64,000 bases of DNA from Patescibacteria group bacterium. Lineage in GTDB: Bacteria; Patescibacteriota; Minisyncoccia; Phycocordibacterales; PALSA-1337. Below the pieces are notes generated by a model, which had not been told where the DNA came from, ran no database searches, and was given only the letters and a program-made list of their open reading frames with translations. Position numbers and translations under genes: made by a program. This document shows, piece by piece, positions 8,127-61,446 of the stretch. Each line of letters opens with the position of its first letter. Within the stretch, counting starts at the first letter, position 1. Where the stretch lies: the NCBI GenBank assembly GCA_024654575.1, contig JANLHG010000014.1, positions 24,745-88,744 of the forward strand. Reading direction: 5' to 3'.

Positions 8127-9940
8127 ATACCTCGTGCCCCTGGACTATTTACATAACCGTATGCACTGTGGCCGACAGGAATCAATGTCGCTAACGCTCG
8201 TCTATCTGCAAAAGCAAGGTCTTCCATATCTTTAACTTGAGATGTTTTAAGATGAGATACTACGATGGGGTTTGTAAAGTTAGGAGTTCCTAAACTAACA
8301 ATTTCTTTTCCGGTCATTTTTGAAATAATATTTTTTACTGTAGTTGAGTCACCGCTGCCGATAGCATTAATAAGTAATTGTCTTTTGGCATTTTTAATTG
8401 TAATTTTATCTGCTTCTGATCTTTCACCTTTTTCTATTTCATCTAATTCTCCTTTACCTAAATGCTGGGTGACTAATGGATTGGTAATTGTTTTGGTGTC
8501 TAGTTGTGCTTTTTCTTTAGTACTCATTTTATCTAGAGCATCTTTTACTGCAGTTGCGTTACCGGTAGCCATCGCCACTTTTAGATCTTTAACTCTGTCA
8601 ATGATGCGTTGTTTTGTGGCAACATCTTTTCCTTGCTTAACGCTATCAATTCTTGATTTTGAACTTCCAAATTTAGCACTAGCTAATGCTCCTGTGCTTA
8701 TTTGACGAAGAGATCGTCCGGCAACACTATTCCCAAATGATGTATTTTCAAGTGCTTTGTCTAATGAATGACCAACTCTACCAACCGTATTCCTTCCCAC
8801 AAATCCCTGACCCATTTTTCTTAATGATTGCCCCCACCCCTTTAGTGTACTTGCTCCCTGAACTCCTAGTTTATCAGCAATAATTAAACCAGCGATTAAG
8901 AAAATAATAACTATTAGAAAATTGAGAATAACCACCACCGAACTAGCTCCTGTTCCAGCTCCGCCTGAGAATGCTTGATTGAATGTAGGGCTGACATCAG
9001 ACCCGCCATTTAAAACCTTTTTGAAAGTCGGGTCACTTAAGATTCTTATACCTATGTAAGTGACTAAAAGATAGGCAGGTGCGAATATAGCTTGTTTATG
9101 AAGAGTACTCCACCATTGGTCAGCATAAGACTTTGTTCCCGGTAATACTCCGCTTACATAAGCTAGTGGAGAAAGAGCCATAAGAATAATGAGAACGACT
9201 ATGCGAATAGCAAAAAGAACTGCTGCGGCGAAAAATACGAAAGCAGCTACAAGCATTACGATTGAACCCATAATTGTGGTTGTAAAGATGTGTTTATTAT
9301 CAATACCAGTAGGTGCTCCTCCAGCGAGTTGAGTTGGTTGATTGTAATCTAAAGTGGTTTGGATCCATAGTTGTTGCATAAAGACATCTGAAAGACAGCC
9401 ATCAGCACATTCTTCAGCATTAGGTGTCATTGCATTGTAGAATTGTAGAGCTACTATGTTTGATGCATCAATAATTATCTTGGTGAAGAATAAACTGAAG
9501 TTTATAAGAAGTCCTGCAATGACAATATTGACCAACAGTTTTTTTGTGCCCAGTCCGTCAAGTCCTAAAATCATTGAAATAGCTTGATAGATGATAAGGA
9601 AAATGAAAAACATTGTGGCAAAATCCCGCACTGTTTTCCAAGCGAGAGTAATAGCTGGTATTTGTGCTACTAATGTGGAAATATTTAGTGTCCATTTGAG
9701 AGAATAATTTAGAAGAATACCAGCAATCCATAATACTTTACTAACAAGAGTCATAATGACATTTCCAATTATTCCAGAAGCATTTTCTATGGCACTTTTC
9801 CCGATATCACCTATAGTAAACCAATCACCAATTCCAGCGTAAGTAATTTGTGGAAAAATAATAGTATAATTGGCTACTAGAATAAAGAGAACTATGAAAA
9901 TGTATATTAGTATTTTTTTCATCGTATTAATAGCTGACAT
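8117..9940 (-). CDS. VirB6/TrbL-like polytopic membrane protein with a repeated hydrophilic C-terminal tail
   Basis: Signal peptide followed by at least 6 TM helices over about 380 aa, then a hydrophilic tail. The tail contains two copies of a roughly 45-aa repeat (...TAVKDALDKMSTKEKAQLDTKTITNPLVTQHL / ...TTVKNIISKMTGKEIVSLGTPNFTNPIVVSHL). Confidence 0.5.
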   Translation of the reverse strand: MSAINTMKKILIYIFIVLFILVANYTIIFPQITYAGIGDWFTIGDIGKSAIENASGIIGNVIMTLVSKVLWIAGILLNYSLKWTLNISTLVAQIPAITLAWKTVRDFATMFFIFLIIYQAISMILGLDGLGTKKLLVNIVIAGLLINFSLFFTKIIIDASNIVALQFYNAMTPNAEECADGCLSDVFMQQLWIQTTLDYNQPTQLAGGAPTGIDNKHIFTTTIMGSIVMLVAAFVFFAAAVLFAIRIVVLIILMALSPLAYVSGVLPGTKSYADQWWSTLHKQAIFAPAYLLVTYIGIRILSDPTFKKVLNGGSDVSPTFNQAFSGGAGTGASSVVVILNFLIVIIFLIAGLIIADKLGVQGASTLKGWGQSLRKMGQGFVGRNTVGRVGHSLDKALENTSFGNSVAGRSLRQISTGALASAKFGSSKSRIDSVKQGKDVATKQRIIDRVKDLKVAMATGNATAVKDALDKMSTKEKAQLDTKTITNPLVTQHLGKGELDEIEKGERSEADKITIKNAKRQLLINAIGSGDSTTVKNIISKMTGKEIVSLGTPNFTNPIVVSHLKTSQVKDMEDLAFADRRALATLIPVGHSAYGYVNSPGARGIWY

Positions 9941-11505
9941 TGTTGCAGTTTTATATTTGCTTGGCTTTCAAGAACGGCCATTTTTGTAATAATATCATCT
10001 CTGTCTACTTCTGAATTTACCACTGCTGTAGTATCGTGAAGAATTTGATTTTGAATAATATTTTGGTAATCAGAAGTGGGTGTCACAGTATCATTTACAG
10101 TTTTGGCATTGTTTATCAGAGTTTTAGTATTGTTTAATTTTATAAGATTATCATTTGAATCAGAAACATCTTTAAGTAAAGGCTCTGCTAAAGGAGTGAT
10201 GGATTGGGCAATCATATCCCCTATTTCAACTATTTGAGCTTGAGTGAATGCTGTAGAAGATTTTTGTTGGTAACAACTCTGAGCACTGACTAGAAGATTT
10301 TTTGCTTTTATAACCGCTGAAAGCGAAGCGTTCTTATTTTGGTTGTAAGTTGTTTCTTCTTTTATTGAAGCATCAATGCCTTTAATGGATTCTGTTTTTA
10401 TATTTTGTAAAGCTTGAATATCTTCAGGGCTTTGTTGTTGAGATATTTTATTTATATATGAGGTGCTGTCAAAACTTCCTGACCCGCTTGTACCTTTTAA
10501 TCCGCTTCCTCCAGTAATTACCGTTTTGATTAATTGAGCAAAAAGGGCGTTCACAATTTCATTAAATTCATCAGCTAGTTCAAGTTGTCTAACTCCAGAC
10601 CCTAAAACGTTTTCTAATCCGCTTTCTATGACCGTACCTGGAGTTTGAATTTCGCAATGTTCTTCTGCTACATACCCTTCACCTGTGCCCTCAAAAGATC
10701 GCTCTGGTCCAGTATATGTTCCTTCTCCTGTTCCCTGATCTGGTCGCTCTTCAGTATTTTCACGGCCGGTTTTTTTACAAGACTTCCATGAAAGAAATCC
10801 TTTACCCCAATCAATTTCTGATTTTCGTGCTGCTTGTTTATTAGCAATTCTTAACGAAAGTTCTTCTTCTGCTAAAAGAGAAGCACCGATGTAATTATTT
10901 TGTGGTTCTTGAGTTAATGAAAGCCAATTTCCCCAACCGCCATTGCTAAAGTTGCCTTTTATAAAACTATTATTAAACCCATTTCCTGCATTTGTGGCAT
11001 TATTTACAATATCAGTAAACGTACAAGTAATTTTTTGTTTAAAAGGACGATATCTAAAAGCTAAAGCGATACGAATATCTATACTAAAAGGTTTACAAAG
11101 AAAATTAAGGTCAGACGAACCCTCTATAAACTTCCCTATCTCTTGGTCAGCTATGTCTACAAACATTCCTGCTGGGTCGGTAACGAAAGATGGGTTGCCG
11201 TCAAAGCCAGAGTTTATCCAGTTGACTATACTCGTGGTCATCTGACGAATAATAGCTTTAGCAATGTACCACGCGATGCCGTCCAAAACGGTTTCTTTGT
11301 ATTGCAAAGCATATTGATAAATATTTGAAGTGACACTTTTAGTTGCCGTTATGGTATTTTGGATAAGATTAGTGGGGTCAAATGTAATGTCTCCTATACC
11401 AAACAAAGCTTCACTTTTTTTAGGATATGATAAAAAAGTAGTAGGAATAACGAGAGAAATTACAAGTATGAAGCTTATTATTTTTTTATTTAATAAATTA
11501 AACAT
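9919..11505 (-). CDS. Hypothetical secreted protein (signal peptide; Gly/Thr-rich central region; N/Q/S/T-rich C-terminus)
   Basis: N-terminal hydrophobic segment KKIISFILVISLVIPTTFLSY. No catalytic motif recognised. Confidence 0.4.
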   Translation of the reverse strand: MFNLLNKKIISFILVISLVIPTTFLSYPKKSEALFGIGDITFDPTNLIQNTITATKSVTSNIYQYALQYKETVLDGIAWYIAKAIIRQMTTSIVNWINSGFDGNPSFVTDPAGMFVDIADQEIGKFIEGSSDLNFLCKPFSIDIRIALAFRYRPFKQKITCTFTDIVNNATNAGNGFNNSFIKGNFSNGGWGNWLSLTQEPQNNYIGASLLAEEELSLRIANKQAARKSEIDWGKGFLSWKSCKKTGRENTEERPDQGTGEGTYTGPERSFEGTGEGYVAEEHCEIQTPGTVIESGLENVLGSGVRQLELADEFNEIVNALFAQLIKTVITGGSGLKGTSGSGSFDSTSYINKISQQQSPEDIQALQNIKTESIKGIDASIKEETTYNQNKNASLSAVIKAKNLLVSAQSCYQQKSSTAFTQAQIVEIGDMIAQSITPLAEPLLKDVSDSNDNLIKLNNTKTLINNAKTVNDTVTPTSDYQNIIQNQILHDTTAVVNSEVDRDDIITKMAVLESQANIKLQQCQLLIR

Positions 11506-26351: not shown

Positions 26352-27242
26352 ATGTCGCACAATATCTTAGACTTAAAAATGCAGTTTTTGGAATACGTAG
26401 AAATTGAAAAAGGTCGTAGTTTGAACACTATACGCAATTATGATCATTATTTAACTCGTTTTATAGAATATTCTAAAATATCTCAACCAAAACAAATCAA
26501 TGAAAATCTCATTAGAGACTACAGATTATGGTTAAATAGGCAGAAAGGAGAAGAAAGTTTTTTGAAGAAAAAAACTCAAAATTATTATCTAATCGCTCTT
26601 CGTTCTTTTTTAAAGTATTTAACTAGACGCGGTATAGTATCTCTTTCTTCTGAGTATATTGAGTTAGCAAAAGTCCCGGAACGATCGCTTGACCTTATAT
26701 CTATGGATGAATTATCTAGACTGATGAAAGCAACAGATGGCGATGACTTAAAAAGCTTGCGAGATAAGGCCATATTGGAATTATTATTTTCTACAGGATT
26801 ACGAGTATCGGAATTATGTTCTTTACCTAGAGAATTAAACTTAAAATCAGATGAAATATCTATTCGTGGTAAGGGGGAAAAAGTTAGGGTAGTTTTTTTA
26901 TCAGATGATGCTAAGCAATCTGTTAAAAAATATCTTGATAAAAGAAAAGATATGGATGACGCTCTTTTTGTTCAAATGAGAACAGCTTCTAGGCTTACTT
27001 CTCGTTCAATTGAGAGAATTATAAAATATTACGCAATTAAGGCTGGAATTTCAAAAAAAGTTACACCCCACATTATTCGTCACAGTTTTGCTACTGACTT
27101 ACTTAGAAATGGTGCTGATTTACGTTCAGTTCAAATGCTTTTAGGTCATGCTAATATAGGGACAACTCAAATTTACACCCATATTACCGATAAAGAATTA
27201 CGAAATGTGCATAAGAAATTTCACAATAAGTCTTCTACTTGA
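26352..27242 (+). CDS. Tyrosine site-specific recombinase XerC/XerD-like
   Basis: C-terminal catalytic box HIIRHSFATDLLRNGADLRSVQMLLGHANIGTTQIYTH. Confidence 0.8.
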   Translation: MSHNILDLKMQFLEYVEIEKGRSLNTIRNYDHYLTRFIEYSKISQPKQINENLIRDYRLWLNRQKGEESFLKKKTQNYYLIALRSFLKYLTRRGIVSLSSEYIELAKVPERSLDLISMDELSRLMKATDGDDLKSLRDKAILELLFSTGLRVSELCSLPRELNLKSDEISIRGKGEKVRVVFLSDDAKQSVKKYLDKRKDMDDALFVQMRTASRLTSRSIERIIKYYAIKAGISKKVTPHIIRHSFATDLLRNGADLRSVQMLLGHANIGTTQIYTHITDKELRNVHKKFHNKSST

Positions 27243-32103: not shown

Positions 32104-32937
32104 TTATGACGCAAGCGGTTGTTTTGGTATATCTTTATCTAACCTTTTTGCCTCCGCCCAAGCTAGCTCATAAATCTTTTTCATCGCATCTGCTATCTCG
32201 GCACTTTCAATAATCACACCAAGCTTTTCTTTCCATGAAGCGATCATAACTTTGTTGTCGTAAATGTTTATCTCAGGTGAAAAATAATATTTATCTGGTG
32301 GTACGAATGCGATTTCTCTTTTTTCTTCTATATTATGTGTTCCACGTTCTTCTCCTGTAGGTGTTTTAGGTACGATTGCACGAATCGCAATACCTTTTTC
32401 TGCACGCCTCTTGTAGTAGGCGGGGAAGTAGTTTGGAAGTCCTTTGTGCATATCATCTACATTTGCGTATGCTCGAATCGCTTCGCTTGATGTGAGCGTA
32501 TCTTCATACACGTGCTTCAATCCATCGCTTCCTTCATAAAATTTTATCTTTGGTCTATTTTGACCAGCTTCTACAGATCGAAGTTGAGGAATTAATAATT
32601 CGGCTTTTTTGATTTGTTCATTTGTATCATCAATCTTATTTTTTAAATATTTAACAATAGCCTCTGGGGGTTCAACAGAATATTCAGATTTAGGCTCTTT
32701 ACCTGATATGTTAACTAAACCTTTATTAAATAGAGTATCCAGAATATCGTAGCCAGTAGTACGATTAATACCAGCTTTTCTAGAGATTTGAGATACTGTC
32801 CCGTGACCAAGTTCTAAAAGTCCAATATAAACATCGGCTTCTTTGTTACTTAATTCAAAAGATTGAAGAGTTAGTTTAAGTTCTTTATTACTTTCATTCA
32901 TATTTGTAAGTATATACATAAACAATTTATGTGTCAA
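32104..32937 (-). CDS. TrmB-family transcriptional regulator
   Basis: N-terminal wHTH (LSNKEADVYIGLLELGHGTVSQISRKAGINRTTGYDILDTL). Confidence 0.6.
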   Translation of the reverse strand: MTHKLFMYILTNMNESNKELKLTLQSFELSNKEADVYIGLLELGHGTVSQISRKAGINRTTGYDILDTLFNKGLVNISGKEPKSEYSVEPPEAIVKYLKNKIDDTNEQIKKAELLIPQLRSVEAGQNRPKIKFYEGSDGLKHVYEDTLTSSEAIRAYANVDDMHKGLPNYFPAYYKRRAEKGIAIRAIVPKTPTGEERGTHNIEEKREIAFVPPDKYYFSPEINIYDNKVMIASWKEKLGVIIESAEIADAMKKIYELAWAEAKRLDKDIPKQPLAS

Positions 32938-33018
32938 TTATTTTCCACAAAAATATGTTGACAAGATAACATATATTGTTATATATGATTATACTAGCTA
33001 TTTACTTGACGAAATATA

Positions 33019-33047
33019 TTGACAATATCTATCCACTATGCTATACT
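33019..33047 (+). promoter_or_regulatory. Consensus sigma70-type promoter (TTGACA, 17 bp spacer, TATACT)
   Basis: Exact -35 and near-exact -10 spaced 17 bp. A second TTGACA/TATATA pair lies at 32958..32985. Palindromic AACATATATTGTT-like elements sit in the divergent trmB-like regulator's control region. Confidence 0.5.
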
Positions 33048-33151
33048 TATCTTCAGATCATCAGGAAGTAGGGCATAAAGCCAGTTCTGCTAACACTAGG
33101 ATATAGAAGATCAAAACGATCTTCTAATACTTACCAGATGAATACTGTTCT

Positions 33152-33613
33152 ATGAAAATTCTAATCGTCGAAGACAATATTGCGGAACTCGCTCGTGCCG
33201 TCAAAATCGCTACGGAAATGGGGTTCGAAGTAGTTACTGCTACGGATGCATCTGTTGGATCAAAAATGGTCTGCAAAGATGTGTGGAATCAGACCACCAA
33301 TGAGACCACTTATACTCCACTCGTAGATGGAGTCGTGACAGACATATTCATGCCGTACTTCGAAAAAGAAGATTGGAGGCACAATTCGGACAGTCCTTGT
33401 GGAGTCATGGTGGCGATGGCTGCAAAAGCGGCGGGTTTACCGTGTTGCTTTTGCACGGGAGGGTACCATCACGGGGCGAAATTCCAGTGGATTCAGACAA
33501 TGGGAAGATATATCAATATCGGCATGGTCGATTCCGGTTCTGGCGAAGAGATGGATGCCCCCAAGAAATGGAAAGAAGCTCTGGAGAATGTGAAAAGCAG
33601 TATAATCTGCTAA
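33152..33613 (+). CDS. Atypical CheY-like receiver-domain protein with a Cys-rich segment, on a GC-rich islet
   Basis: MKILIVEDN start and a VVTDIFMPY phospho-acceptor-like motif, but a non-canonical T/K region and a PCCFCTGGYHHG cluster. Local GC is about 47% against about 30% for its flanks. Confidence 0.45.
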   Translation: MKILIVEDNIAELARAVKIATEMGFEVVTATDASVGSKMVCKDVWNQTTNETTYTPLVDGVVTDIFMPYFEKEDWRHNSDSPCGVMVAMAAKAAGLPCCFCTGGYHHGAKFQWIQTMGRYINIGMVDSGSGEEMDAPKKWKEALENVKSSIIC

Positions 33614-33759
33614 AGACAATGGAGATATGCCTATCACAAACTCTAACCTCATGCAGAAATGCATGGGGTTTTTATATGTTACATATTTTAATATGAAGAA
33701 GGATTTTGATGGGTGGAATAAAAAAAGAAAAAATTGAACAAGCTTTTGTTATAAAATCG

Positions 33760-33783
33760 AAACCCCGCTGTAAAGCGGGGTTT
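33760..33783. terminator. Bidirectional rho-independent terminator
   Basis: Hairpin AAACCCCGC-TGTAAA-GCGGGGTTT between the convergent rny and receiver-like genes. Confidence 0.7.
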
Positions 33784-33830
33784 CTCGGAGGCCGAAGCCA
33801 CTGTGTACTTATACACTAGCATATTGTTAA

Positions 33831-35360
33831 TTATCGTGCAACTTCAACTGCACGCATTTCGCGGATGACATTGACTTTGATTTCGCCTGGATATTTTAGA
33901 TCATTTTCTATTTTTACAGCAATTTCGTGTGCCATTGTCTTGGCTTCAAGGTCGGTTACTTGTTCTGGAGTGACAAAAATTCTTATTTCTCGTCCTGCTT
34001 GTAGGGCATATGATTTTTCAACACCTTTAAAAGAATTAGCTATTGCTTCCAAATCCTCAAGTCGTTTTAGATAATTTTCAATAGAATCTCGTCTCGCTCC
34101 CGGTCTTGCTCCTGATATAGAGTCAGCAGTTTGTACAATGATTGATTCAATCGTCTCATAAGGATATTCCTCATGATGTGCTTGCATGGCTTTGATGATT
34201 TCTTCATTTGTACCGAATTTTTGTAATATTCTGCGACCTATTTCTACGTGAGTACCTGCAACTTCGTGGTCTACAGACTTACCTATGTCATGGAGTAGGG
34301 CACCAGCTTTTGCTGTAGAAACGTTTGCTCCAAGCTCTTCAGCAATCATTCCGGCAATATGAGCCATTTCTATTGAATGTTGAAGAACATTTTGTCCATA
34401 ACTTGTTCTAAAGTGAAGTCGGCCCAAAATAGCCATAACTCTTGGATCAAGGTTGAATATACCGCATTCATAAGCAGCTTGTTCACCTTTTTCTTTAATT
34501 ATCTTATTAATATCTAATTGAGCTTTTTCGACAATTTTTTCAATTTTAACTGGTTGAATTCTTCCGTCTTTAATGAGTTCTTCAAGTGCCATTTTGGCTA
34601 CCTGTCTTCTAACAGGGTCAAAAGAGGAGATAGTGATTGCTCCTGGAGTATCATCTACGATTACTTCAACCCCAGTTACTCGCTCAAAAGCCTTTATGTT
34701 TCGGCCCTCTTTTCCTATGATTTTTCCTTTTATTTCATCATTTGGAATAGTAACGCTTGTTGACATAATGTCTGAAGCGACAGAACTGGCGAGACGTTGA
34801 ATAGAGGTACTTAATATATTTTTAGCTTTATTCTCTAATCTTTCAGTTCCGGATGTTTCTATTTTTCTAATTCTAGAAAGAATGTCGTCTTCAAATTTTT
34901 GCTCTATTAAGGTAAATAACTCTTGTTTTGCTTCTTCTTCTGTAAGTTGGGTAATTTTTTCGAGGGATTCTTTTCTTTCTAATTCAAGTTTATCAGCTCT
35001 TTCTCTAATTTCCTTTATTTCAATGATTTTTGTCTTGATATTTTCTACTTCTGAGTCAATATCTACTTGTCTTTTATCTAGAAGGTCTTCTTTTTTTATT
35101 AGTCTATTCTCTGTTTGTTTCGTTTTTTCTTCTTTTTCCTTTATTTCTTTTCGTATTTCCTGCATTGTTTCTGTGGCCTTTTTTTCTGCTTCAGCTGTTA
35201 TTTTCTTTGCATCTTCTTTAGCTTCTAGCATCATTTGCTTTATTTCTAGCTCCATTGAGCCTTTTTTACCTAAAGAAATGATAAGACGCAAGAAATAACC
35301 AATCGCAACACCAGCTAGGCCCGCAGCACTTGCGAGAAGCAATATTACTTTTAGTGACAT
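33831..35360 (-). CDS. rny: Ribonuclease Y
   Basis: N-terminal TM helix, coiled-coil, KH (GKEGRNIKAFERVTGVEVIVDD) and HD (LHDIGK...H) domains. Confidence 0.88.
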   Translation of the reverse strand: MSLKVILLLASAAGLAGVAIGYFLRLIISLGKKGSMELEIKQMMLEAKEDAKKITAEAEKKATETMQEIRKEIKEKEEKTKQTENRLIKKEDLLDKRQVDIDSEVENIKTKIIEIKEIRERADKLELERKESLEKITQLTEEEAKQELFTLIEQKFEDDILSRIRKIETSGTERLENKAKNILSTSIQRLASSVASDIMSTSVTIPNDEIKGKIIGKEGRNIKAFERVTGVEVIVDDTPGAITISSFDPVRRQVAKMALEELIKDGRIQPVKIEKIVEKAQLDINKIIKEKGEQAAYECGIFNLDPRVMAILGRLHFRTSYGQNVLQHSIEMAHIAGMIAEELGANVSTAKAGALLHDIGKSVDHEVAGTHVEIGRRILQKFGTNEEIIKAMQAHHEEYPYETIESIIVQTADSISGARPGARRDSIENYLKRLEDLEAIANSFKGVEKSYALQAGREIRIFVTPEQVTDLEAKTMAHEIAVKIENDLKYPGEIKVNVIREMRAVEVAR

Positions 35361-51186: not shown

Positions 51187-52071
51187 ATGGCAAAGATATC
51201 AGCGGTATTTAATAAAATAAGTTTACTTAGGGAAAGATATTATAAAGCATTAATAGGAAAAGATGCACTTATTAAACTTATCTCCGAAACCGAAGCCGTT
51301 GATCAAGTATATAACTCAAATGCTATAGAAAACAGTACACTTACTCTCGAGGAGACAGAAAAAATACTTCTTCAGATTGATTTGGATAGATTTATCACTG
51401 AGCGAGAAATTTTTGAAGCAAAAAATCTTGCACGAGTAGTATCGTATATAGATAAAAGAGCTAAAGAACAAGAATTAACTCTTGATGTAATTTTGTCACT
51501 TCATAAAATGTTGATTTCAAACATTCGAGATGATGTTGCTGGAAGATTTAGAAAAGATAACGAATATGTTCGTGTTGGAAATCATATTGCTTCTAATCCG
51601 AAGGAGATAATAAGTCGTCTCGAAAAAATGTTGACGGAATACAATTTTACAATTAATGAAAATATCATCAAGCGTATATCAAAATTACATCTTGTTTTTG
51701 AGTATATCCACCCGTTTATTGATGGAAATGGTCGAATTGGGCGAGTCATTAACAATTATTTATTGATACGAGAAGGGTTCGTTCCAATAAATATAAAATT
51801 TATTGATAGAAAAATGTATTACGAAGCTTTTAAAGAGTTTGATGAAAAAGATAGCACTACTATTATGGAAGGAATCGTTGGGAAAGCACTTACGAATAGT
51901 TATCATAAGAGATTGGCGTATTTAGAAGATAAAACAATAATTACACTAATTGATTATGCAAAGAATAATAATTTTTCTCATTCTAACCTTATCAATAAAG
52001 CTAATAGACAAACCATAGAAGCCTTTTTAGAGAAAGGTGTTTGGAAAATAGGTGTTATGGATAAAAAATAA
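51187..52071 (+). CDS. Fic-family protein (AMPylase-type; class-II-like inhibitory motif present)
   Basis: Canonical HPFIDGNGRIGR Fic motif and an upstream SNAIEN ((S/T)xxxE(G/N)) motif. Start moved from the GTG at 51163 to the ATG at 51187, because the predicted -10 sits inside the GTG-extended ORF. Confidence 0.75.
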   Translation: MAKISAVFNKISLLRERYYKALIGKDALIKLISETEAVDQVYNSNAIENSTLTLEETEKILLQIDLDRFITEREIFEAKNLARVVSYIDKRAKEQELTLDVILSLHKMLISNIRDDVAGRFRKDNEYVRVGNHIASNPKEIISRLEKMLTEYNFTINENIIKRISKLHLVFEYIHPFIDGNGRIGRVINNYLLIREGFVPINIKFIDRKMYYEAFKEFDEKDSTTIMEGIVGKALTNSYHKRLAYLEDKTIITLIDYAKNNNFSHSNLINKANRQTIEAFLEKGVWKIGVMDKK

Positions 52072-52599: not shown

Positions 52600-52675
52600 G
52601 GTGGCTATAGTGTAATGGTTAGCACTAGAGTTTGTGGAACTCTCAGTTCGGGTTCAAATCCCGATAGTCACCCCA
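52600..52675 (+). tRNA. tRNA-His (anticodon GTG) with encoded G-1 and CCA
   Basis: Extra 5' G pairing with discriminator C, anticodon stem AGAGT/ACTCT with loop TTGTGGA, T-arm TCGGG-TTCAAAT-CCCGA, 3' CCA in the genome. Confidence 0.85.
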
Positions 52676-54262
52676 TTCAAGAATAAGTTGAGCGAAAGCC
52701 ATATTTCGTGCCTCAACAGTAAGGTTTTTGTCCAGTTCCAGCCGTTTATACTTTTTTTCTAACTCAGGATACGCTTTTTCTATTGGAACAAACCATTCGT
52801 TTGGTGTTATATGGATTTTTTTGTCTTTCACTAAAAAGTTCTGACCAAGTGCTGAAAATATTTCTCTTTTTTTATTAAGATCTCCAAGAAGAAACTCTTT
52901 GCGTGCATAACAAGAGAAATTAAATGTTTTTTCAGTAAGTTCCAGCCATTTTTCTGCCCTACTCTCTGTTTCTCTTAAGTTTGTTTTGAGTTTCACTATT
53001 TTTGTTGTGAGCTCATCTCTCTCTTTTATGAATGTTTCATCATCAATAAGTTCTCGATATCTCATTTTGGTGAGTGTATCTAGCTCTTTTTGAGTATTTA
53101 CAAGTGTTCTATGTTGGTTTTCATATATCTTAGTCCGTTCCTCAATTTCTTTATCGTTGTTTCGGTTGAGTATTTCAAGAGCCCACTCTTGAAACTTTGG
53201 CATGATAGTATATCGTTCAAGTTCAATATCAATCTGATCTTCAAGTTCTTTTAGTGTCATTGGATTTTTCTGATCGCATTTCACCTCTTTTTTCTTTCTG
53301 GTGCAGTTGTAATATACATAAGTTTTTAGTTTTCCAGTACTTTTTATTATTTTTGTTTTTTCGCTCGCTGTATACATTGAATTACATATTTTGCATCGCA
53401 TAAGTCCTGTATAAGCAAAATTATGTGTCTGTGCTCGTGGTTTACCGTTTCTACCGAGAATGATTTGCACTCGATCATATTCTTCAAGAGTGATCATTGA
53501 TTTATGGTTGCCTTTATAAACTCTTCCAGCCCACATAAACATTCCTGTATAGAAGATATTAGTGAATAATTTATAAATAACACTACTTGCAATTTCAACA
53601 CCTCCATCTCGTTTTGTTTTTGGTGTGCGAAAGCCCCACTCTTTATTTGCGATTTCTCGTATTTGTGGAGGTGTGTAATTTCCAGTAAGCATTATGTTCC
53701 ACATTTTTCGGACCAGATGAAATCGTTCTTTGTCTTCAATGATTGTATGTTCGAGTTTATCATTCAAATATCCTAAAGGAGCACGAGAGGGAAGCCATCC
53801 TCGATCTGCTTTTCCTTCCATACCTCGTTTACTGTTTTTTCGTAGGTCTATAATGAACTGATTTGCCATTCCGCTTTCGACATTAAATAAAAGAACATTG
53901 TCATCAGGTAGATACTGACGATCTATGCTTTGTATACATTTCAAAGCACCCTGTTGAAGCATCCAGCTTAATGTTCCACTATCAATAGGGTTTCGTGATA
54001 GACGATTGATTTGCCAGCATAGAATACCTTGAGCCTCTCCTTTTTCAATTCGTTCAAGCATATTGGTGAAGACGGGGCGACAATATGGTTTCTTTGCAGT
54101 TTTTGCTTCAGTAAGTATTTCTTTAATTGAAATGTTTAGATTGTTTGCTAGATCTTTGAGGCGACTTATTTGGTCCTCAATTGATTGGACCTGTCTATCC
54201 TCACTCTCTGATGATTTGCGAGCGTAGAGAAAATATGTAATTTTGTTAGTTTCGTTTTTCAT
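52643..54262 (-). CDS. Large serine recombinase (integrase)
   Basis: N-terminal resolvase catalytic domain (YARKSSESEDRQVQSIEDQ with the Ser nucleophile, and RLSR), a recombinase domain, and a Cys-rich zinc ribbon (CKICNS...CTRKKK..C). Start set to the ATG at 54262. Its last 11 codons overlap the 3' half of tRNA-His. Confidence 0.8.
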   Translation of the reverse strand: MKNETNKITYFLYARKSSESEDRQVQSIEDQISRLKDLANNLNISIKEILTEAKTAKKPYCRPVFTNMLERIEKGEAQGILCWQINRLSRNPIDSGTLSWMLQQGALKCIQSIDRQYLPDDNVLLFNVESGMANQFIIDLRKNSKRGMEGKADRGWLPSRAPLGYLNDKLEHTIIEDKERFHLVRKMWNIMLTGNYTPPQIREIANKEWGFRTPKTKRDGGVEIASSVIYKLFTNIFYTGMFMWAGRVYKGNHKSMITLEEYDRVQIILGRNGKPRAQTHNFAYTGLMRCKICNSMYTASEKTKIIKSTGKLKTYVYYNCTRKKKEVKCDQKNPMTLKELEDQIDIELERYTIMPKFQEWALEILNRNNDKEIEERTKIYENQHRTLVNTQKELDTLTKMRYRELIDDETFIKERDELTTKIVKLKTNLRETESRAEKWLELTEKTFNFSCYARKEFLLGDLNKKREIFSALGQNFLVKDKKIHITPNEWFVPIEKAYPELEKKYKRLELDKNLTVEARNMAFAQLILEWGDYRDLNPN

Positions 54263-54406
54263 ATAAAAACCCCAAAGGGACGGTCTGGTACCCCAACTCA
54301 CTTGCTCCGAAGAGTAGCCTCATTGGCAAACCGCCCCTTTAGGGCAACGAGGCAATAAAAAGCTCCTCGGATTAATGCTGTGAAATTAGGGTACTTATAT
54401 ATCATA

Positions 54407-55030
54407 TCATTTTTTCTTAATATTATCTAATCGGTTTTCCCAATTTATCAACATCATTCCATAATTCTGTTCAAATTTTTCATTCAACCTCATTAGTCGC
54501 TTGTATTTTCTTGTGGGCTTACCTTTGTAGTAATATCGCTTGATTTCCTTTTCTGCTTTTTCTAAGTCTAGAATTGATATTCCATTCCATCTATATTTTC
54601 CTCCCACCATTTGCTTAGAATAAGCTATGTTTCCACAGTGTCGGCAACCGAACCATTTACCGATGCTGAAAATCACACCCACTCGTCGTCCACAATATAT
54701 TTCATTTTTATAAAGAGGACAGATAAACCAGTATCTTTTCCCCCCATATCGGCATGGAGTAGTAGTAAGTTCAATTTTATAATCTATATCATCTTTTCCC
54801 CCAGAATATTTGTTTGTGTTTGTATATCTCAAATTTATATAAGCTCTTTCTTCGGAGGTGTCACAGCCATCTTTAATTACAGAGAAACTTATACTGTTTT
54901 TATTTTTGCTGTATCCATAGGTCCAAGTGATACCACCACACTTATAACTGCAATCTTTATCCAGATAACCATATTTTTTGAGCCAGAAGATACTTAAGCT
55001 GTTAGATTGTTCTGCGATTGGTTTAGACAT
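54407..55030 (-). CDS. Hypothetical Cys-rich (zinc-ribbon-like) protein
   Basis: CSYKCGG ... CRYGGKRYWFICP ... CGRRVG...CRHCGN cysteine pairs. No family recognised. Confidence 0.35.
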   Translation of the reverse strand: MSKPIAEQSNSLSIFWLKKYGYLDKDCSYKCGGITWTYGYSKNKNSISFSVIKDGCDTSEERAYINLRYTNTNKYSGGKDDIDYKIELTTTPCRYGGKRYWFICPLYKNEIYCGRRVGVIFSIGKWFGCRHCGNIAYSKQMVGGKYRWNGISILDLEKAEKEIKRYYYKGKPTRKYKRLMRLNEKFEQNYGMMLINWENRLDNIKKK

Positions 55031-55318
55031 TTTATTTTTGCAAACTAGCCGAAATCATTAGAGATTAATAGCTATTTTTTGGTATTTTATCATCATTTTA
55101 TGTTGAAAATAAAGGGTTTTTTTACTTATTCAATTATTTCATGTTTTTTCTGTTATTTTACGAAACAAATCCGTTTTTATTCTTTTGAAATATCTACATC
55201 TACGACTGCCAAGTTTGGCGTTCTCACGATTTGTCTCAATTTGTTTTTGTGATGTCTCAGTCATAGCATTTATACTGTTATTCATACTGTTTAGCAGTAT
55301 GAGATAGTTTTTATAATG

Positions 55319-57502
55319 TTAAAAATCTATTTCCTCCATAGTAATTTCATTGCTTTCTTGATCAGTGTTTTTTACCTCACCCTCTATTTCACTATTCTTT
55401 GCTTCACCAGAAAGTTGATACAGGGAGGAGGGGAAAATCATCATCTTGCGTTTATCGTTCGGGTCTTGTTCCTGTACGATAAGCCCAGCCGTTTCAAGCA
55501 TCGGGAGTATCTGCTGGCGAAGTTGATGACCATCCAACATCCTTCCATAAACTGCAAAGTGTTTTTCAAGAACCTCTTGGCGTGAAAGACCGAGCTTGCC
55601 TGTAAGTTCTTCAAATGTTTCATTTCTGCTGTTATTTTTTGCTTCCCACGCTGGCAAAATAACTTCTTTGTAGAGATTATAGATGTAGGGTGGTAGGTTT
55701 AATTCTTGGCTCACAGATATTTTATCCCAGAGCTTGAAGGCATCGTTTACATCATTTTTGTTCGCCGTAATCGTGGATCCGTCTCGTTCACGCCACCAGA
55801 CATTGAGCATAGCGAACGACTTGATAAGTGATAACAAGCGTTTGATATCTCGCTGATGTCGTGGTTTGAGTGTTTTATTTTTGTTTAAAAACCTCTCGCT
55901 AATTTTTTCTGGCGATACGATGTTTATTTCCTTAATGTTCTCTAGTTTGATAGCACGAATACGCTCTTTGAGTAATGCTCGGTCTGGGTTTTCTTCAAGC
56001 CAACTTACAAAACTCTCGCTGTCCGCCTCTTTGCGTATTATTGCACTAATACCTTGTTGTATTTTATCTTGACTAACCTCTGGAGAAAGAAGCAGAAATC
56101 TTGTTGCTTCCTGTTCATCTATACGAAGCCCAGCTGTGCAGAAAATAACTGACGGATATCCACGCAGAAGAATGTTTTTTGTTTTAGTTCCATTTTTCTG
56201 TGTTTTGTCTGTAATTTTAATTGCAATCTCTTTTTTGTCGTGAGAGAGAAGGGGTCGTAGTCGTGCCAGAAGTTCATTATGTGGCTGGTCCAGAAAAATA
56301 AGTATCTTGTGTGAAAGGTCAACTAAGTAGCTGTTTTTATCTTTGTCATATTGTCCAACATCGTGGAAGAACGCCGTAGGGGAGCAGTAAGCAATCTCCA
56401 TCACATCGTCTTGTGGAAACAAGCGTGCAATTTCTGTGGGGATATAACTTTTACCAGTAGATGATGGTGCATTGTAGCTGATATTGAATTGTGAGCTTTC
56501 GGTATAGGCAGAAAGCTCGCACAGGAATGTCGCCAGCTTATTCTCGGCATCGTATTTGATGGTAAGTCCGAGCGTATCAAGGAGCTGTGTTGAACTCATG
56601 GGAGCGAATTGTGTGATATCAATTTTCTCTGGATACGGCTTTGCGTATTTGCCGAACAAATCGTCTACAGATCCGTTGAGTTTTATAAAATAATCCGTGA
56701 TGTCTCCAGCTTCACCAACCTCTTCTGGCAGAGTAATGATGTGTATCTCACACCCAATACTTTCCAATATTTTTGCTACTCGTTCAGACCCTTTTCTTCC
56801 AGCATCATCTTTATCAAAACAGATATATATTTTATTATCTTTTCTTATCTTTTCTACCCACTCGTCTTTGAATGTCATAGCTCCGTGAGTAGAGGTTATT
56901 GTAGGTACATTTTTGGAAAGAAGAAGTAATCTGTCTAGTTCACCTTCGCAGATTACAAGTGAAATGCTAGGTTTTGTTAGGTTATCCCAGTCATAGAGCT
57001 GTGCCTCGGCTCCTTTAGGATATGTTATTTTATCGTTACCAAAAACAGGATCCATTCTTAATTTGAAAAACGAATAATTGCCGTATATATCCTTGATTGG
57101 GATAGTAATCCACGACTTGCGATAAAATTGTCCATAGCCAAGCTTATAGGCGTCTATGACGGCATCAGTGAGCCCTCGCTTGCGTAGATACTCTCGTATA
57201 TGTGGTGGTAATTCTTGATGACATTTTTCCACTAATTCTGTATTAAAAGTGTTTATCTTGCGTGATTTTGGTTCTGTATCGCCGAAGTATTTTGCTAATG
57301 TGATGAGATTACCTTTTTCACCACATTTTTTACAATCATATTGTCCCGTATCGATACTAAAATATAAATGTGCTTCGTTGCCTTTGCTGTCCCTATCGCA
57401 ATCATTGAAAAAGCATTTGACGATAAGTTCTTTGCCACTCTCACGAAAGGGGATACCTTTCCCGATTAGATATTCTTTAATTGTAATATTTGTTAGGTTC
57501 AT
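55319..57502 (-). CDS. Phage/plasmid P4-like primase-helicase (CHC2 zinc-binding + TOPRIM primase + P-loop NTPase)
   Basis: CHC2-like CFFNDCDRDSKGNEAHLYFSIDTGQYDCKKCGE, TOPRIM (LVICEGELD ... DKDDAGRKG), and Walker A APSSTGKS in the C-terminal half. Confidence 0.65.
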   Translation of the reverse strand: MNLTNITIKEYLIGKGIPFRESGKELIVKCFFNDCDRDSKGNEAHLYFSIDTGQYDCKKCGEKGNLITLAKYFGDTEPKSRKINTFNTELVEKCHQELPPHIREYLRKRGLTDAVIDAYKLGYGQFYRKSWITIPIKDIYGNYSFFKLRMDPVFGNDKITYPKGAEAQLYDWDNLTKPSISLVICEGELDRLLLLSKNVPTITSTHGAMTFKDEWVEKIRKDNKIYICFDKDDAGRKGSERVAKILESIGCEIHIITLPEEVGEAGDITDYFIKLNGSVDDLFGKYAKPYPEKIDITQFAPMSSTQLLDTLGLTIKYDAENKLATFLCELSAYTESSQFNISYNAPSSTGKSYIPTEIARLFPQDDVMEIAYCSPTAFFHDVGQYDKDKNSYLVDLSHKILIFLDQPHNELLARLRPLLSHDKKEIAIKITDKTQKNGTKTKNILLRGYPSVIFCTAGLRIDEQEATRFLLLSPEVSQDKIQQGISAIIRKEADSESFVSWLEENPDRALLKERIRAIKLENIKEINIVSPEKISERFLNKNKTLKPRHQRDIKRLLSLIKSFAMLNVWWRERDGSTITANKNDVNDAFKLWDKISVSQELNLPPYIYNLYKEVILPAWEAKNNSRNETFEELTGKLGLSRQEVLEKHFAVYGRMLDGHQLRQQILPMLETAGLIVQEQDPNDKRKMMIFPSSLYQLSGEAKNSEIEGEVKNTDQESNEITMEEIDF

Positions 57503-57729
57503 ATATTTGTAATTCTTTTTTGTAATAATGATAATGTTTCTTGTCTATGTTTTTGAATTAACTCATACTCTTTCTCAGTCATGGGCTTATAGACGACAGA
57601 CATCAACTGCAAGAGTTTAACGCCTTTCTCATAGGCATCCTCTCGGCTGATTTTCATTCCGAACTCGCTTTTATAGAGAGCTTGAAACTTCAAAATGTCT
57701 TCGTCTAAAATGATCATGGCTATTTTCAA
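57499..57729 (-). CDS. Hypothetical small protein
   Basis: 76-aa helical protein whose start overlaps the primase stop by 4 nt. Confidence 0.3.
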   Translation of the reverse strand: MKIAMIILDEDILKFQALYKSEFGMKISREDAYEKGVKLLQLMSVVYKPMTEKEYELIQKHRQETLSLLQKRITNI

Positions 57730-58022
57730 GAGCTGAAAATTTGATTTTTCAGTCGCTTAATCTGGTTGAAGTAAGTTTGGGCATCAACCGATGTTTTAAA
57801 ATCCCAAAAGTCTTTTATGGTTTCATCTATCCCACTACTCTTTTTTACAATGAATAAAACTTTGTTTCTTACTGCTTTATCTAAACCTGACAATTCAAAA
57901 TTTTGACAAAGCAAAAATGCCACGAGCGAAATATCGTAGCTATAAAAATAGTTTGTTGTGTCGTCGAAAGGCAGATAAGTATATTCCTCTGGGTGAACAC
58001 TTTTTTGTGTTTTTTTAGTCAT
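57726..58022 (-). CDS. Hypothetical small protein (DUF5659-like pattern)
   Basis: A YDISLVAFLLCQNFEL central segment resembles phage-associated DUF5659. Weak. Confidence 0.3.
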   Translation of the reverse strand: MTKKTQKSVHPEEYTYLPFDDTTNYFYSYDISLVAFLLCQNFELSGLDKAVRNKVLFIVKKSSGIDETIKDFWDFKTSVDAQTYFNQIKRLKNQIFSS

Positions 58023-58142
58023 ATAATTTTGTTAATTTAATTTGTTAAAACGACCTAATAGATTTTTTGAAAAACAAAAAACCATACTAGTTGCAGTATG
58101 GACTTTAAGAGAATTCGTATGAGAATTTTGGACTAAACTGGA

Positions 58143-58715
58143 CTACTCTGGACTATTTTTTGTATGAGCTAATTCTAATTCCTTAAAAAATAAAAGAATT
58201 TTTACACCAGCTTTTTCTAAATCATTTTTAATGATCTCGTCTCCTCTATAAATTAAAGTATCCTTACCTCTTTTGTAGAAAAATGCTTTGAGGATTTCTC
58301 CCTTAAAACCAAGTCCATTCAAAATTTTAATAAAACTTTTATTTTTAACCCGATTTTGAGTAGATAAATTACCAAACTTTGATGGTAATTCATTTCTATT
58401 TATTTTTGTGTGTGGAGCTTGAGAACAAACATACTCAAAAAATTCGAGATTACTTCCAACGGCATGTGGTTTTCCTATAAGATATTCATTAACCCATATC
58501 TCTCGGTCTTTTATTAAAAGTTTAAACTTATTTGTAATTGAATTTACTGTTGGTTTTTTATTAATTAATTCTCTAAAACTTGCCTCATGTTCTTTACTCG
58601 TTGATAGGTCCAAAACTCTTGCCCTGTACGCTAGATATTTTGTCTCAAAATCGTCTGGTAATTCTATATATAAATCAGTAGCCATAAAATTACATATAAT
58701 CTGGAAGAAAATCAA
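58143..58715 (-). CDS. Hypothetical protein
   Basis: 190 aa with no motif. Overlaps the upstream gene by 26 nt. Confidence 0.3.
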   Translation of the reverse strand: MIFFQIICNFMATDLYIELPDDFETKYLAYRARVLDLSTSKEHEASFRELINKKPTVNSITNKFKLLIKDREIWVNEYLIGKPHAVGSNLEFFEYVCSQAPHTKINRNELPSKFGNLSTQNRVKNKSFIKILNGLGFKGEILKAFFYKRGKDTLIYRGDEIIKNDLEKAGVKILLFFKELELAHTKNSPE

Positions 58716-59217: not shown

Positions 59218-59277
59218 TGTAATTGTAATTTATTCTAACTTTACTCTTTTTTACATTTTTTTCAAGCACGAAAAAAC

Positions 59278-59302: not shown

Positions 59303-59311
59303 GATAAAATC

Positions 59312-61441: not shown

Positions 61442-61446
61442 TGCTA

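Follow-up and report, generated by a model that had tools for sequence, protein, structure and literature searches.

How did a single GC-rich gene for a CheY-like protein come to lie beside a TrmB-family regulator gene in a Patescibacterium, and what might its product do there? The initial annotation of the 64-kb stretch of DNA analysed here (the window) had pointed to a recent horizontal acquisition of an orphan receiver module. The explanation that we consider probable, while leaving real room for others, is that the islet constitutes a unit of leader, receiver gene and terminator which was swapped into a variable slot divergent from trmB, and that residue D64 of the encoded protein accepts a phosphoryl group. 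The features concerned are the following.

32104-32901, minus strand: trmB-family regulator gene, 265 aa from the ATG at 32901 (Pfam)
32909-32937, minus strand: trmB promoter, TTGACA-N17-TATACT (promoter scan, 11/12 matches)
32930-32949, no strand assigned: near-invariant box TGTGTCAATnnTTTTCCACA, overlapping the trmB -35 (locus alignment)
32953-32983, no strand assigned: direct repeats resembling operators, ATATGTTGAcAA and ATATATTGtTAT, 19 bp apart (locus alignment)
33006-33047, plus strand: cargo-gene promoter (promoter scan, 11/12 matches with TG)
33052-33151, plus strand: structured 5' leader RNA, 100 nt (MFE, RNAalifold, covariance model)
33152-33613, plus strand: coding sequence of a divergent single-domain, CheY-like receiver, 153 aa, MCR4334421.1 (ORF, AF2, Foldseek, hhalign)
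33621-33644, plus strand: conserved 3' UTR element GGAGATAnGCnTATCACAAACTCnAACC (locus comparison)
33645-33676, plus strand: intrinsic terminator of the receiver gene, an 11-bp stem followed by a T tract (terminator scan for 33645-33670, fold)
33759-33784, minus strand: terminator of the convergent rny gene, outside the cassette (terminator scan, 11-bp stem, 7 GC)

Composition and descent of the receiver gene

The reading frame was correctly described at the outset as single, clean and beginning MKILIVEDN, and its GC content of 47.0% was reproduced, the host figure of 30% being corrected to about 33.5%, the mean of the window. The recomputed GC profile is far from uniform: just 0.36% of equal-length segments reach the value of the receiver ORF, all of them within a mobile element at 60-63.5 kb. 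The raised block comprises the leader (33050-33151, 37%), the ORF and the 3' element with its terminator (33614-33678, 38.5%), and the DNA on both sides has a GC content of 20-29%. GC3 of the ORF is 0.51 against 0.211±0.030 for 51 host genes (z=+10), and its codon-usage fit to the same genes gives z=-8.2. Because GC1 and GC2 stay close to host values and the shift falls mostly on third codon positions, amino-acid composition can be dismissed as its cause.

Could the gene nevertheless have been inherited vertically, its high GC3 being upheld by selection on mRNA structure, on expression level or through an overlapping element? The receiver gene is syntenic with homologs beside trmB, and GC3 is elevated in both of the low-GC hosts (the window and L007), as this reading would have it; we nonetheless judge it very unlikely. 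In comparisons between all homologs, synonymous sites proved saturated in the receiver gene (pS 0.72-0.95; its pN of 0.13-0.37 denotes purifying selection), as they are in trmB. There is accordingly no conserved overlapping element, and neither an RNA hidden in the gene nor a constraint on synonymous sites can account for the shift. Moreover, receiver GC3 matches that of the host in medium-GC genomes, equals or falls under it across medium- and high-GC genomes, and is an outlier in the two low-GC hosts only. Other cargo genes of low-GC hosts are GC-rich too. The DNA of similar GC content elsewhere in the window is demonstrably mobile.

Vertical descent is further contradicted by the gene trees. 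The receiver tree unites L001 and L004 with 100% bootstrap, whereas the TrmB tree places L004 with L009 and L011 (99%) and L001 with L005 (86%). This conflict (100% versus 99%) supports cassette exchange. For the window itself the conflict is moderate only, its receiver grouping with those of L005 and L009 (65%) and its TrmB with that of L012 (72%). Taken with the extreme GC3 and codon usage, the discordance across related loci supports a foreign origin of the receiver gene. Its codon usage indicates that it came, fairly recently, from a relative of higher GC content, most likely by recombination within conserved flanks, and the exchange of cargo does look, from the sequences, like homologous replacement between them. 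The donor was most likely another Saccharibacteria-type Patescibacterium: the nearest homologs (81-82% amino-acid identity) occupy the same slot, and the databases hold no close donor sequence. As the best match is 82% identical with dS saturated, it is missing amelioration alone that dates the acquisition as recent. A phage or viral origin was rejected, since neither tblastn against 50,697 phage records nor IMG/VR returned a match.

A conserved regulator with interchangeable cargo

What, then, is the site into which the gene was placed? The left-hand neighbour, transcribed divergently from the receiver gene, is a conserved TrmB-family regulator gene (PF01978 at residues 23-91, E=7.4e-15, with 55 bits where 25.6 is the cut-off), and it is found in this position in all close-family loci with an upstream flank present, the flank of L010 amounting to just a 28-aa stub at the contig end. 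The trmB promoter is conserved in 35 distinct loci, and its ATG sits 7 nt past the -10, a spacing from which the trmB mRNA is probably leaderless. Box TGTGTCAATnnTTTTCCACA is identical in seven of the first eight loci (L011 has one substitution) and immediately precedes trmB in 49 metagenome loci, which were themselves collected by searching with that box; it is a candidate TrmB operator. The direct repeats ATATGTTGAcAA and ATATATTGtTAT, with a consensus ATATGTTGATA...ATATATTGATAAATATG in many main-clade loci, may likewise serve as binding sites. The placement of box and repeats between divergent promoters would suggest autoregulation combined with control of the target gene, as in the TrmB family. 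Archaeal TrmB, TrmBL1 and TrmBL2 share the TrmB wHTH domain with the neighbour, and TrmBL2, at 264 aa against 265, is its best though weak PDB match. Unlike the archaeal TrmB, the neighbour is bacterial, faces variable cargo instead of a fixed sugar-metabolism operon, and has no recognisable sugar-binding TrmB_C domain.

The two near-consensus promoters that had been assigned to the receiver gene do exist; they are divergent, however, only that at 33019-33047 (plus strand) reading into the receiver gene, whereas that at 32937-32909 (minus strand) serves trmB. The cargo promoter combines a TTGACG (33006-33011), a -35 TTGACA (33019-33024), a 17-nt spacer and an extended -10 TGcTATACT (33039-33047), and the pattern TTGACGa...TTGACAat...TGnTAtanT is kept in 35 loci, whichever gene comes next. 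Similarly, no bidirectional terminator exists: the receiver gene has its own terminator on the plus strand (33645-33670), and the strong hairpin that had been taken for a bidirectional one is the minus-strand terminator of rny, whose ORF (33831-35360, minus strand) encodes RNase Y, with orthologs carrying RNase_Y_N/KH/HD domains. Between stop codon and terminator, GGAGATAnGCnTATCACAAACTCnAACC is common to the receiver loci L004, L005 and L007 and to the non-receiver (c5) loci L089 and L104. Being single-copy in the window and confined to a few related loci, it is neither a dispersed repeat nor a site of the attC kind, and Rfam recognises no family in the 3' UTR.

The foreign islet is not isolated in host DNA, as first proposed, but one of many alternative cargo genes of a conserved variable slot. 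The 49 additional box-bearing TrmB loci hold about 20 unrelated cargo types, and a receiver in just one case. Acylphosphatase (PF00708, E=6.5e-12; L069 and L085), Janus/Ocnus proteins (PF05005, E=1.2e-8; L034, L078 and L099), radical-SAM enzymes, a solute-binding protein, zinc ribbons and unknowns all occur. Depending on the locus, 0.9 to 4.3 kb separate the box from the HU/RNase Y core genes; in the window the receiver gene occupies the slot alone, with 904 bp from box to rny. Since most TrmB loci have no receiver, TrmB works without one.

Chromosomal hotspots and integron-like slots offer a parallel, for they too have a fixed promoter, interchangeable downstream genes, cargo of foreign composition and conserved flanks. 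Unlike those, the slot in the window has no adjacent integrase, no attC-like repeats were detected, and its cargo brings its own leader and terminator. An integron gene cassette was ruled out on these grounds and because the neighbour is TrmB. A tyrosine recombinase lies just downstream of the slot in L005, L006 and L010; the closest one in the window (26352-27242) is 6 kb off. As a separate observation, an inter-gene element in L001, L009 and L048 has a CUGAUGA...GAAA core that by eye makes a plausible type III hammerhead layout, but Rfam finds no hammerhead ribozyme in it even at E<=1.

Variable cargo beside a conserved regulator is also a trait of regulator-linked defence islands. Might the slot be an anti-phage hotspot and the receiver part of a defence system? 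In L007 and L008 the next gene after the receiver encodes a PycTM-type effector, in keeping with such a role. However, PADLOC was negative apart from the PycTM neighbour in L007, matching neither the receiver nor seven other cargo proteins; the phage and viral searches described above found no homologs; and the receiver stands alone in the window slot. We therefore regard a defence function as extremely improbable.

The leader is the other notable part of the unit. Three hairpins lie within an enclosing P1/P1b; P1 has its 3' strand ending ~8 nt before the start codon, and the MFE is -28.7 kcal/mol (z=-3.7). RNAalifold on five sequences counted 9/33 pairs as compensatory; with nine sequences, 89.5% of cells pair, versus 31-41% in slid controls, and 24 of the 33 pairs change on both sides, a number matched by none of 500 shuffles. 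Rfam 15 gave no match over 33050-33151, either at gathering thresholds or at E<=5. The covariance model matches solely receiver loci and L122, and because the leader of L122 precedes a radical-SAM gene it is not receiver-specific. These properties make it a candidate new cis-regulatory RNA, with a putative regulatory function. A conserved leader mini-ORF was discarded, for the ATG-N12-TGA of the window, which overlaps the start codon, is not kept in L001 or L004, and so was the missing Shine-Dalgarno as a special trait, an SD-like motif being present in just 7/59 window genes.

A receiver with its aspartate pocket and a remodelled output face

Is the protein a genuine receiver? The AF2 model (pLDDT 87.8, pTM 0.85) adopts (beta-alpha)5 topology plus a beta-hairpin, in the order b1-a1-b2-a2-(hairpin)-b3-a3-b4-a4-b5-a5, and of the top 50 Foldseek matches in the PDB nearly every one is a receiver domain or a construct made from one (best E 3.6e-5, target TM 0.66-0.77). 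An hhalign comparison with CheY/Spo0F/PhoB (probability 97.5%, E=8.7e-12) aligns E7/D8, D64, P68 and T102 with CheY D12/D13, D57, P61 and T87, and ends past beta4, the alpha4-beta5-alpha5 half being unalignable to canonical receivers. PF00072 covers the N-terminal half only and at 12.9 bits (E=0.13) stays under its cut-off of 30.2, NCBIfam returns nothing above cut-off, and 24 of 70 wider-family members match PF00072 at E<0.01. The homology is thus one of profile-profile and fold evidence, the protein's own HMM score being sub-threshold. Together these comparisons support a divergent single-domain CheY-like receiver with Asp pocket and Thr intact.

Several details of the initial annotation bear on this assignment. 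The CheY-like character and the phospho-acceptor-like DIFMP motif were borne out, and the long insertion ahead of beta3 corresponds to a confident beta-hairpin (residues 41-56) between alpha2 and beta3. The supposed lack of a Thr/Lys pair was half right: T102 is the Thr, and beta5 ends at D127, followed by S128, where the canonical Lys (CheY K109, which a Pro follows) would be. Ten residues past the end of beta5 and just ahead of alpha5, K138 is invariant in 70/70 members and thereby a candidate stand-in for the displaced Lys, with the conserved W140 beside it in a K-x-W.

The family comprises about 440 clusters (50% identity), uncharacterised, whose named members come from Patescibacteria plus one Nanoarchaeota MAG, and its signature is TxGYHHG...KxW. 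Our literature search found nothing on it or on TrmB-receiver pairs in Saccharibacteria. Among 70 members, position 7 is Glu in 68, position 8 Asp in 66, position 64 Asp in 68, position 68 Pro in 66 and position 102 Thr or Ser in 67. With the single-domain response regulators (CheY, Spo0F, DivK/MrrA-type; PF00072) the receiver shares the fold, the absence of an output domain, the acidic pair, the phospho-acceptor Asp, the Pro at D+4, the Gly at the start of alpha3 and the beta4 Thr. Unlike CheY-type proteins, it has a hairpin of 13-15 residues after alpha2, a beta3-alpha3 loop longer by 13 residues and a beta5-alpha5 loop longer by roughly 10, Asp/Ser at the canonical Lys site, the invariant K-x-W before alpha5 and His-His at T+4/T+5. 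It also differs in its Pfam score and in its orphan setting: a Pfam scan of 30 ORFs in the window found no kinase (HisKA, HATPase_c), consistent with the earlier remark that no cognate kinase or output domain is adjacent.

In aspartate-less receivers and in phosphorylation-independent ones, either the phospho-acceptor Asp or the acidic residues that bind the metal are missing. The receiver resembles such atypical or pseudo-receivers in its divergent sequence, absent canonical Lys and orphan genomic status. It was nonetheless set apart from them, since, unlike them, it keeps E7, D8, D64 and T102, each conserved at 91-97% over 70 members. Could it still do without phosphorylation and use C83, C101, H106 and H107 to bind metal or sense redox, as the early emphasis on a Cys/His cluster would imply? 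The PCCFCTGGYHHG stretch is indeed present, the four residues are invariant in the close subfamily, and by CheY homology (D64, V86, T+4/T+5) they lie on loops or strand ends of the active-site face; the missing Lys would fit as well. Family-wide, however, C98 and C99 are not conserved, C83 reaches 46% and C101 77% (Asn in 19%), against 96% for H106 and 100% for H107. The idea is weakened because the two His residues and not the Cys residues are conserved, and retention of the acidic residues, D64 and T102 would be hard to explain without phospho-chemistry. A metal or redox sensor thus appears quite unlikely.

Possible functions and their meaning

Because the E7/D8 pocket, D64, the Pro at D+4 and T102 are kept, D64 would most likely take a phosphoryl group, and since no output domain is present the receiver would either bind a partner or serve as a sink for phosphoryl groups. 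Known single-domain response regulators likewise work through protein-protein contacts or as phosphate sinks (e.g. PMC5964349). Which of the two applies? The sink version holds that the protein is an enzyme and no switch, D64 autophosphorylating from small-molecule donors (acetyl phosphate, carbamoyl phosphate, phosphoramidates) and being rapidly dephosphorylated, possibly with help from the invariant His-His by the active site, so as to remove labile phosphoryl compounds. In that case its function would parallel that of the acylphosphatase and of the Janus/Ocnus proteins (phosphohistidine-phosphatase family), whose genes fill the same slot under the same promoter in sister genomes. The intact pocket without a kinase in the scanned ORFs, the conserved H106/H107 and the stand-alone nature of the family, which has no conserved partner over distant contexts, all speak for it. 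On the other hand, autophosphatase turnover of receivers is generally slow, and the radical-SAM, solute-binding, zinc-ribbon and unknown cargo fits no common phosphoryl theme. On balance, we think this version unlikely, if still worth serious consideration.

For a receiver swapped into this slot of Saccharibacteria-type Patescibacteria, which lies downstream of the conserved promoter and faces away from the core trmB gene, the best candidate partner would be TrmB itself, because TrmB accompanies the receiver family in three lineages that diverged deeply; the distant TrmB-receiver pairs, at 25-31% identity, are found in L015 (two pairs) and L026. The adjacency may, of course, reflect regulation only. 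A more elaborate proposal, which we find improbable and put forward as speculation, would combine, in Patescibacteria that are ultra-small and poor in kinases, a split response regulator, in which the receiver is charged by metabolic donors such as acetyl phosphate and modulates a TrmB encoded by a separate gene, with a riboswitch-like leader not described before and a slot of interchangeable handlers of labile phosphoryl groups; these may include the receiver, the acylphosphatase and the Janus-type phosphohistidine phosphatase.

What is the significance of such an arrangement? The genomes of Patescibacteria (CPR) are tiny, and little is understood of the ways in which these bacteria sense their surroundings. 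The family described here is a substantial part of the receiver superfamily that has so far gone uncharacterised, in which the phospho-Asp machinery is kept, the output face is remodelled and a His-His pair is invariant. The leader, supported by covariation and absent from Rfam, is a candidate cis-regulatory RNA from a phylum for which few such RNAs have been described. Finally, the TrmB regulator and its divergent promoter form a plug-in site, and thereby a concrete case of reduced genomes swapping small functions.

The receiver protein and its family

The islet holds a single clean reading frame, as the initial annotation had claimed: a 153-aa ORF at 33152-33613 (+) starting MKILIVEDN, deposited as GenBank MCR4334421.1, labelled 'response regulator', on a 183-kb contig of a Patescibacteria MAG. 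Is its product a genuine receiver domain? Direct HMM support is weak, since Pfam Response_reg (PF00072) scores only 12.9 bits against a cut-off of 30.2 (E=0.13, N-terminal half only) and an NCBIfam search returned nothing over cut-off. Nevertheless, three independent lines (fold, profile-profile alignment and family members) show that it is, and the CheY-like assignment thus stands. The AlphaFold2 model, built with 11 homologs as input (pLDDT 87.8, pTM 0.85), predicts the order b1-a1-b2-a2-b3-a3-b4-a4-b5-a5, to which an inserted beta-hairpin following a2 (residues 41-56) and an extended b3-a3 loop (64-84) are added. Almost every one of the solved structures closest to it is a receiver domain or a construct derived from one (among them 3crn, DesR, YycF, PhoB and CheY3; E down to 3.6e-5, target TM-scores 0.66-0.77). 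Profile-profile alignment of the 70-member family with CheY/Spo0F/PhoB (probability 97.5%, E=8.7e-12) equates E7/D8 with D12/D13 of CheY, D64 with D57, P68 with P61 and T102 with T87, a mapping with which a PDB profile search agrees over b1-b3. Finally, 24 of the 70 wider-family members match PF00072 individually (best E=1.7e-9).

Because these residues align onto their CheY counterparts, the protein retains an intact Asp pocket and Thr. The earlier impression that a clear Thr/Lys pair is lacking therefore holds at most for the Lys: the canonical b5 position is occupied by D127/S128, with an invariant K138-x-W140 ten residues on, just before a5, whose K138 is a candidate for the displaced Lys. 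A classical pseudo-receiver was rejected, the phospho-acceptor pocket (acidic pair, Asp, Thr) being retained. The possibility of a metal- or redox-binding pseudo-receiver, raised by the cluster PCCFCTGGYHHG, loses weight because its cysteines are poorly conserved across the family: in the 70-member alignment H107 (100%), H106 (96%), P97 (96%), T102 (91%) and G104 (83%) are well kept, whereas C101 reaches 77% (Asn instead in 19%), C98 and C99 are unconserved, and C83, beyond this stretch, is 46% conserved. Purifying selection acts on the gene (pN 0.13-0.37 vs pS 0.72-0.95). Measured against what defines receiver domains, the protein has the fold, the acidic pair, the Asp and the Thr but falls below the curated HMM threshold; judged by sequence and model, it is homologous to single-domain response regulators and probably works as they do.

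Close homologs number 11 (61-100% identity), and an exhaustive profile search retrieved 440 cluster representatives at E<=1e-3 and 138 at E<=1e-10, nearly all of them stand-alone proteins of 140-200 aa and most without Pfam annotation. Those with a named source belong to Patescibacteria (Parcubacteria, Zambryskibacteria, Saccharibacteria, Minisyncoccia) and, in one case, to a Nanoarchaeota MAG. The family, with its signature (C/N)-T-x-G-Y-H-H-G ... K-x-W, forms a divergent, uncharacterised branch within the receiver superfamily.

The slot divergent from trmB

A TrmB-family regulator gene (PF01978) is divergently paired with the receiver gene in every close-family locus whose upstream flank is present (locus L010 retains just a 28-aa gene stub at the contig end), and the genes downstream vary. 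The shared intergenic region contains:

32937-32909 (-): trmB promoter, 11/12 matches
32930-32949: box TGTGTCAATnnTTTTCCACA, overlapping the trmB promoter -35, identical in 7/8 first loci
32953-32983: operator-like direct repeats, conserved
33019-33047 (+): near-consensus receiver-gene promoter with extended -10, 11/12 matches, TTGACG motif upstream

Two near-consensus promoters thus exist, as first proposed, but they are divergent and serve one gene each. The trmB mRNA is probably leaderless, since its ATG lies only 7 nt past the -10 hexamer; an alternative upstream TTG start at 32937, offered by the ORF finder, would overlap the -35.

Searching metagenome contigs for the box yielded 120 loci, 49 of which have a TrmB ortholog directly beside it, and the divergent promoter is also conserved in the main clade (35 distinct loci aligned, earlier receiver-bearing loci included). 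The receiver, the only slot occupant in the window, is present in just one of these 49 (L116, identical to L001), and about 24 unrelated gene classes occupy the first position behind the promoter. Annotatable cargo comprises an acylphosphatase, a protein of the Janus/Ocnus (phosphohistidine-phosphatase) family, four radical-SAM enzymes, a periplasmic solute-binding protein and a zinc-ribbon protein; several of these first genes are likewise GC-rich relative to their own hosts. The Janus/Ocnus gene (L034/L099/L078) and the acylphosphatase gene (L069/L085) lie behind the same promoter in sister genomes; counting the receiver, three kinds of cargo concern labile phosphoryl groups.

Where the right-hand core genes (HU, RNase Y, ClpP) are retained, they lie between 0.9 kb (window) and 4.3 kb from the box. 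A conserved 3' element with terminator (33621-33676) is common to receiver loci and to loci with other cargo (L005 and L089, sisters in the TrmB tree, are one such pair), which suggests gene replacement between conserved flanks. The strong bidirectional terminator originally placed behind the receiver gene (hairpin 33759-33784) belongs instead to the convergent rny. In layout the slot is akin to a chromosomal hotspot or integron-like plug-in site, but it has no integrase and no attC sites.

Three loci carry, shortly after the receiver gene and on the other strand, a tyrosine recombinase of the Phage_integrase family (L005 3281-4204, L006 1269-2192, L010 1403-2386), which could be a housekeeping XerC/D or linked to cargo mobility. 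A PycTM-type gene (Pycsar effector-like, two-TM) directly follows the receiver gene in L007 (2266-2796) and L008 (1847-2377); a defence role for the receiver is not supported.

Composition and horizontal exchange

Recomputed GC agrees with the sharply bordered GC-rich islet described initially, its extent reaching slightly beyond the ORF:

trmB-proximal intergenic DNA: GC 20.5-29%
33050-33151: transcribed leader, GC 37%
33152-33613: receiver ORF, GC 47%; 44-51% by thirds
33614-33678: 3' element and terminator, GC 38.5%
spacer after the terminator: GC 21.5%

The ORF has 47.0% GC vs 33.5% for the whole window, a value that in a sliding-window check was attained by 0.36% of equal-length stretches, every one at 60.4-63.5 kb. 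With GC1 (0.49) and GC2 (0.41) near host-gene values, the excess resides almost wholly in the third codon position (GC3 0.51 vs 0.211±0.030 in 51 host genes; z=+10), and the synonymous-codon fit to the host lies 8.2 SD under the mean of these genes. The only other window DNA of like composition is a mobile element beside tRNA-His, and islet-like GC therefore marks foreign DNA in this genome.

This integrated element (52601-64000) adjoins tRNA-His (52601-52675), immediately preceded by a Fic/DOC gene (51187-52071). Two of its genes (58.1-59.2 kb) are host-like (GC3 0.18), the foreign-looking ones having 0.28-0.51 vs 0.21 in the host. Type IV secretion-like genes occupy 2873-6446, adjoined by several large ORFs without Pfam match (1605-2864, 8117-11505). 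The genes of both regions are:

2873-3622 (-): T4SS pilin
4632-6446 (-): TraG-type P-loop ATPase
52643-54262 (-): serine recombinase, mobile element, GC3 0.28
55319-57502 (-): Toprim-domain protein, mobile element, GC3 0.36
59642-61441 (+): N6/N4 DNA methylase, mobile element, GC3 0.45
63120-63716 (-): unannotated ORF, mobile element, GC3 0.51

In hosts of medium or high GC, receiver GC3 stays within what is usual for the host; it is a strong outlier only in the two low-GC ones (window, 0.51 vs 0.21; L007, 0.40 vs 0.23, z=4.4). Transfer from medium-GC relatives fits better than selection on GC3, because selection would raise it everywhere. A hidden overlapping element as the cause of the high GC is excluded by synonymous sites being saturated, in receiver and TrmB genes alike; with such saturation, homologue comparison made no near-identical donor available, and phage and viral sequence searches found no carrier. 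The trees conflict: L001 and L004 are sisters by receiver (100% bootstrap) and are separated by TrmB ((L004, L009, L011) 99%; (L001, L005) 86%). In the receiver tree the window's copy clusters with L005/L009 (bootstrap 65%, identity 79-80%), its TrmB, which stands farthest from the rest (65-71%), groups with L012 (72% bootstrap), and the nearer TrmB proteins (L048, L031, L085, L073; 73-77%) sit beside non-receiver cargo. Movement of the receiver cassette between Saccharibacteria-type genomes at the TrmB slot is thus well supported. That the window copy arrived too recently for amelioration, in keeping with the recent acquisition first proposed, is strongly supported by GC3 and codon usage, but only moderately by the window's own position in the two trees.

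The leader RNA and a proposed mode of action

The ~100 nt between promoter and start codon form a stable structure (-28.7 kcal/mol, z=-3.7), an enclosing helix P1/P1b around three hairpins, without an Rfam match. Five homologous leaders contain 9 compensatory pairs, and a covariance model built from them matches receiver loci (window, L001/L003/L116, L004, L009, L011; more weakly L005/L006, L007, L010) and L122, but no other TrmB locus with different cargo. Across nine distinct leaders, in an alignment fitted to that model and so biased towards the structure, 89.5% of cells pair vs 31-41% with slid partners, 24/33 pairs are changed on both sides, and any observed measure was reached in 0/500 shuffles.

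In L122 (1043-3448) a gene for a 413-aa radical-SAM/SPASM protein takes the place of the receiver behind the same TrmB box, promoter and leader, and the leader is therefore a putative regulatory module rather than a receiver-specific autoregulatory site. It may plausibly act by occluding the initiation region, since the P1 3' strand ends ~8 nt upstream of the AUG and an SD-like 4-mer precedes only 7/59 window genes, the latter suggesting mostly SD-independent initiation in the host organism. Three leaders have an extra long upstream hairpin (L005 about 2440-2505, L007 about 1480-1550, L122 2065-2110), whose 3' arm overlaps the P1 5' strand and whose 5' arm (CAGAUGA) mimics the P1 3' strand; as the two pairings are mutually exclusive, the architecture is switch-like. 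L001 (6530-6595), L009 (about 1625-1690) and L048 (there downstream of its first cargo gene) carry an inter-gene element, CCCUGUUA / UCGAGAUGCGUAUCUCGA-CUGAUGA-UUCCGAAAGGAU-GAAA-ACAG, by eye a candidate type III hammerhead core, which had no Rfam ribozyme match even at E<=1; several slot leaders have at their 5' end a sequence similar to the motif that follows it, CAGnnGUUCUUUGA.

The receiver gene thus has a promoter conserved with TrmB, a structured leader and its own terminator, and its product has a conserved phospho-acceptor pocket and no output domain; the claimed lack of an adjacent kinase was borne out, none being found among the 30 ORFs scanned in the 64-kb window. Most probably, TrmB binds the box and repeats, co-regulating both promoters, the leader supplies added post-transcriptional control, and the receiver takes up a phosphoryl group on D64, from a kinase encoded elsewhere or from a small molecule, and then works by contacting other proteins or by serving as a phosphoryl sink. 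A rival to be taken seriously is that it is a turnover 'sink' for acyl phosphates, which would make it a functional analogue of the acylphosphatase and Janus-type genes in the same slot. TrmB is the best partner candidate, because genes of the two types are linked even at deep divergence: L015 (4050-8223), from another Saccharibacteria MAG, has two tandem divergent TrmB-like/receiver-like pairs, and in L026 the two lie 2.3 kb apart, the partners at both loci being only 25-31% identical to the window's proteins (25-34% for the L015 pairs by another count). An obligatory partnership is counted against by most TrmB loci having no receiver. The receiver's genomic context is unexpectedly organised, with the leader as a candidate new RNA by-product, and the findings on receiver, slot and leader are readily testable.
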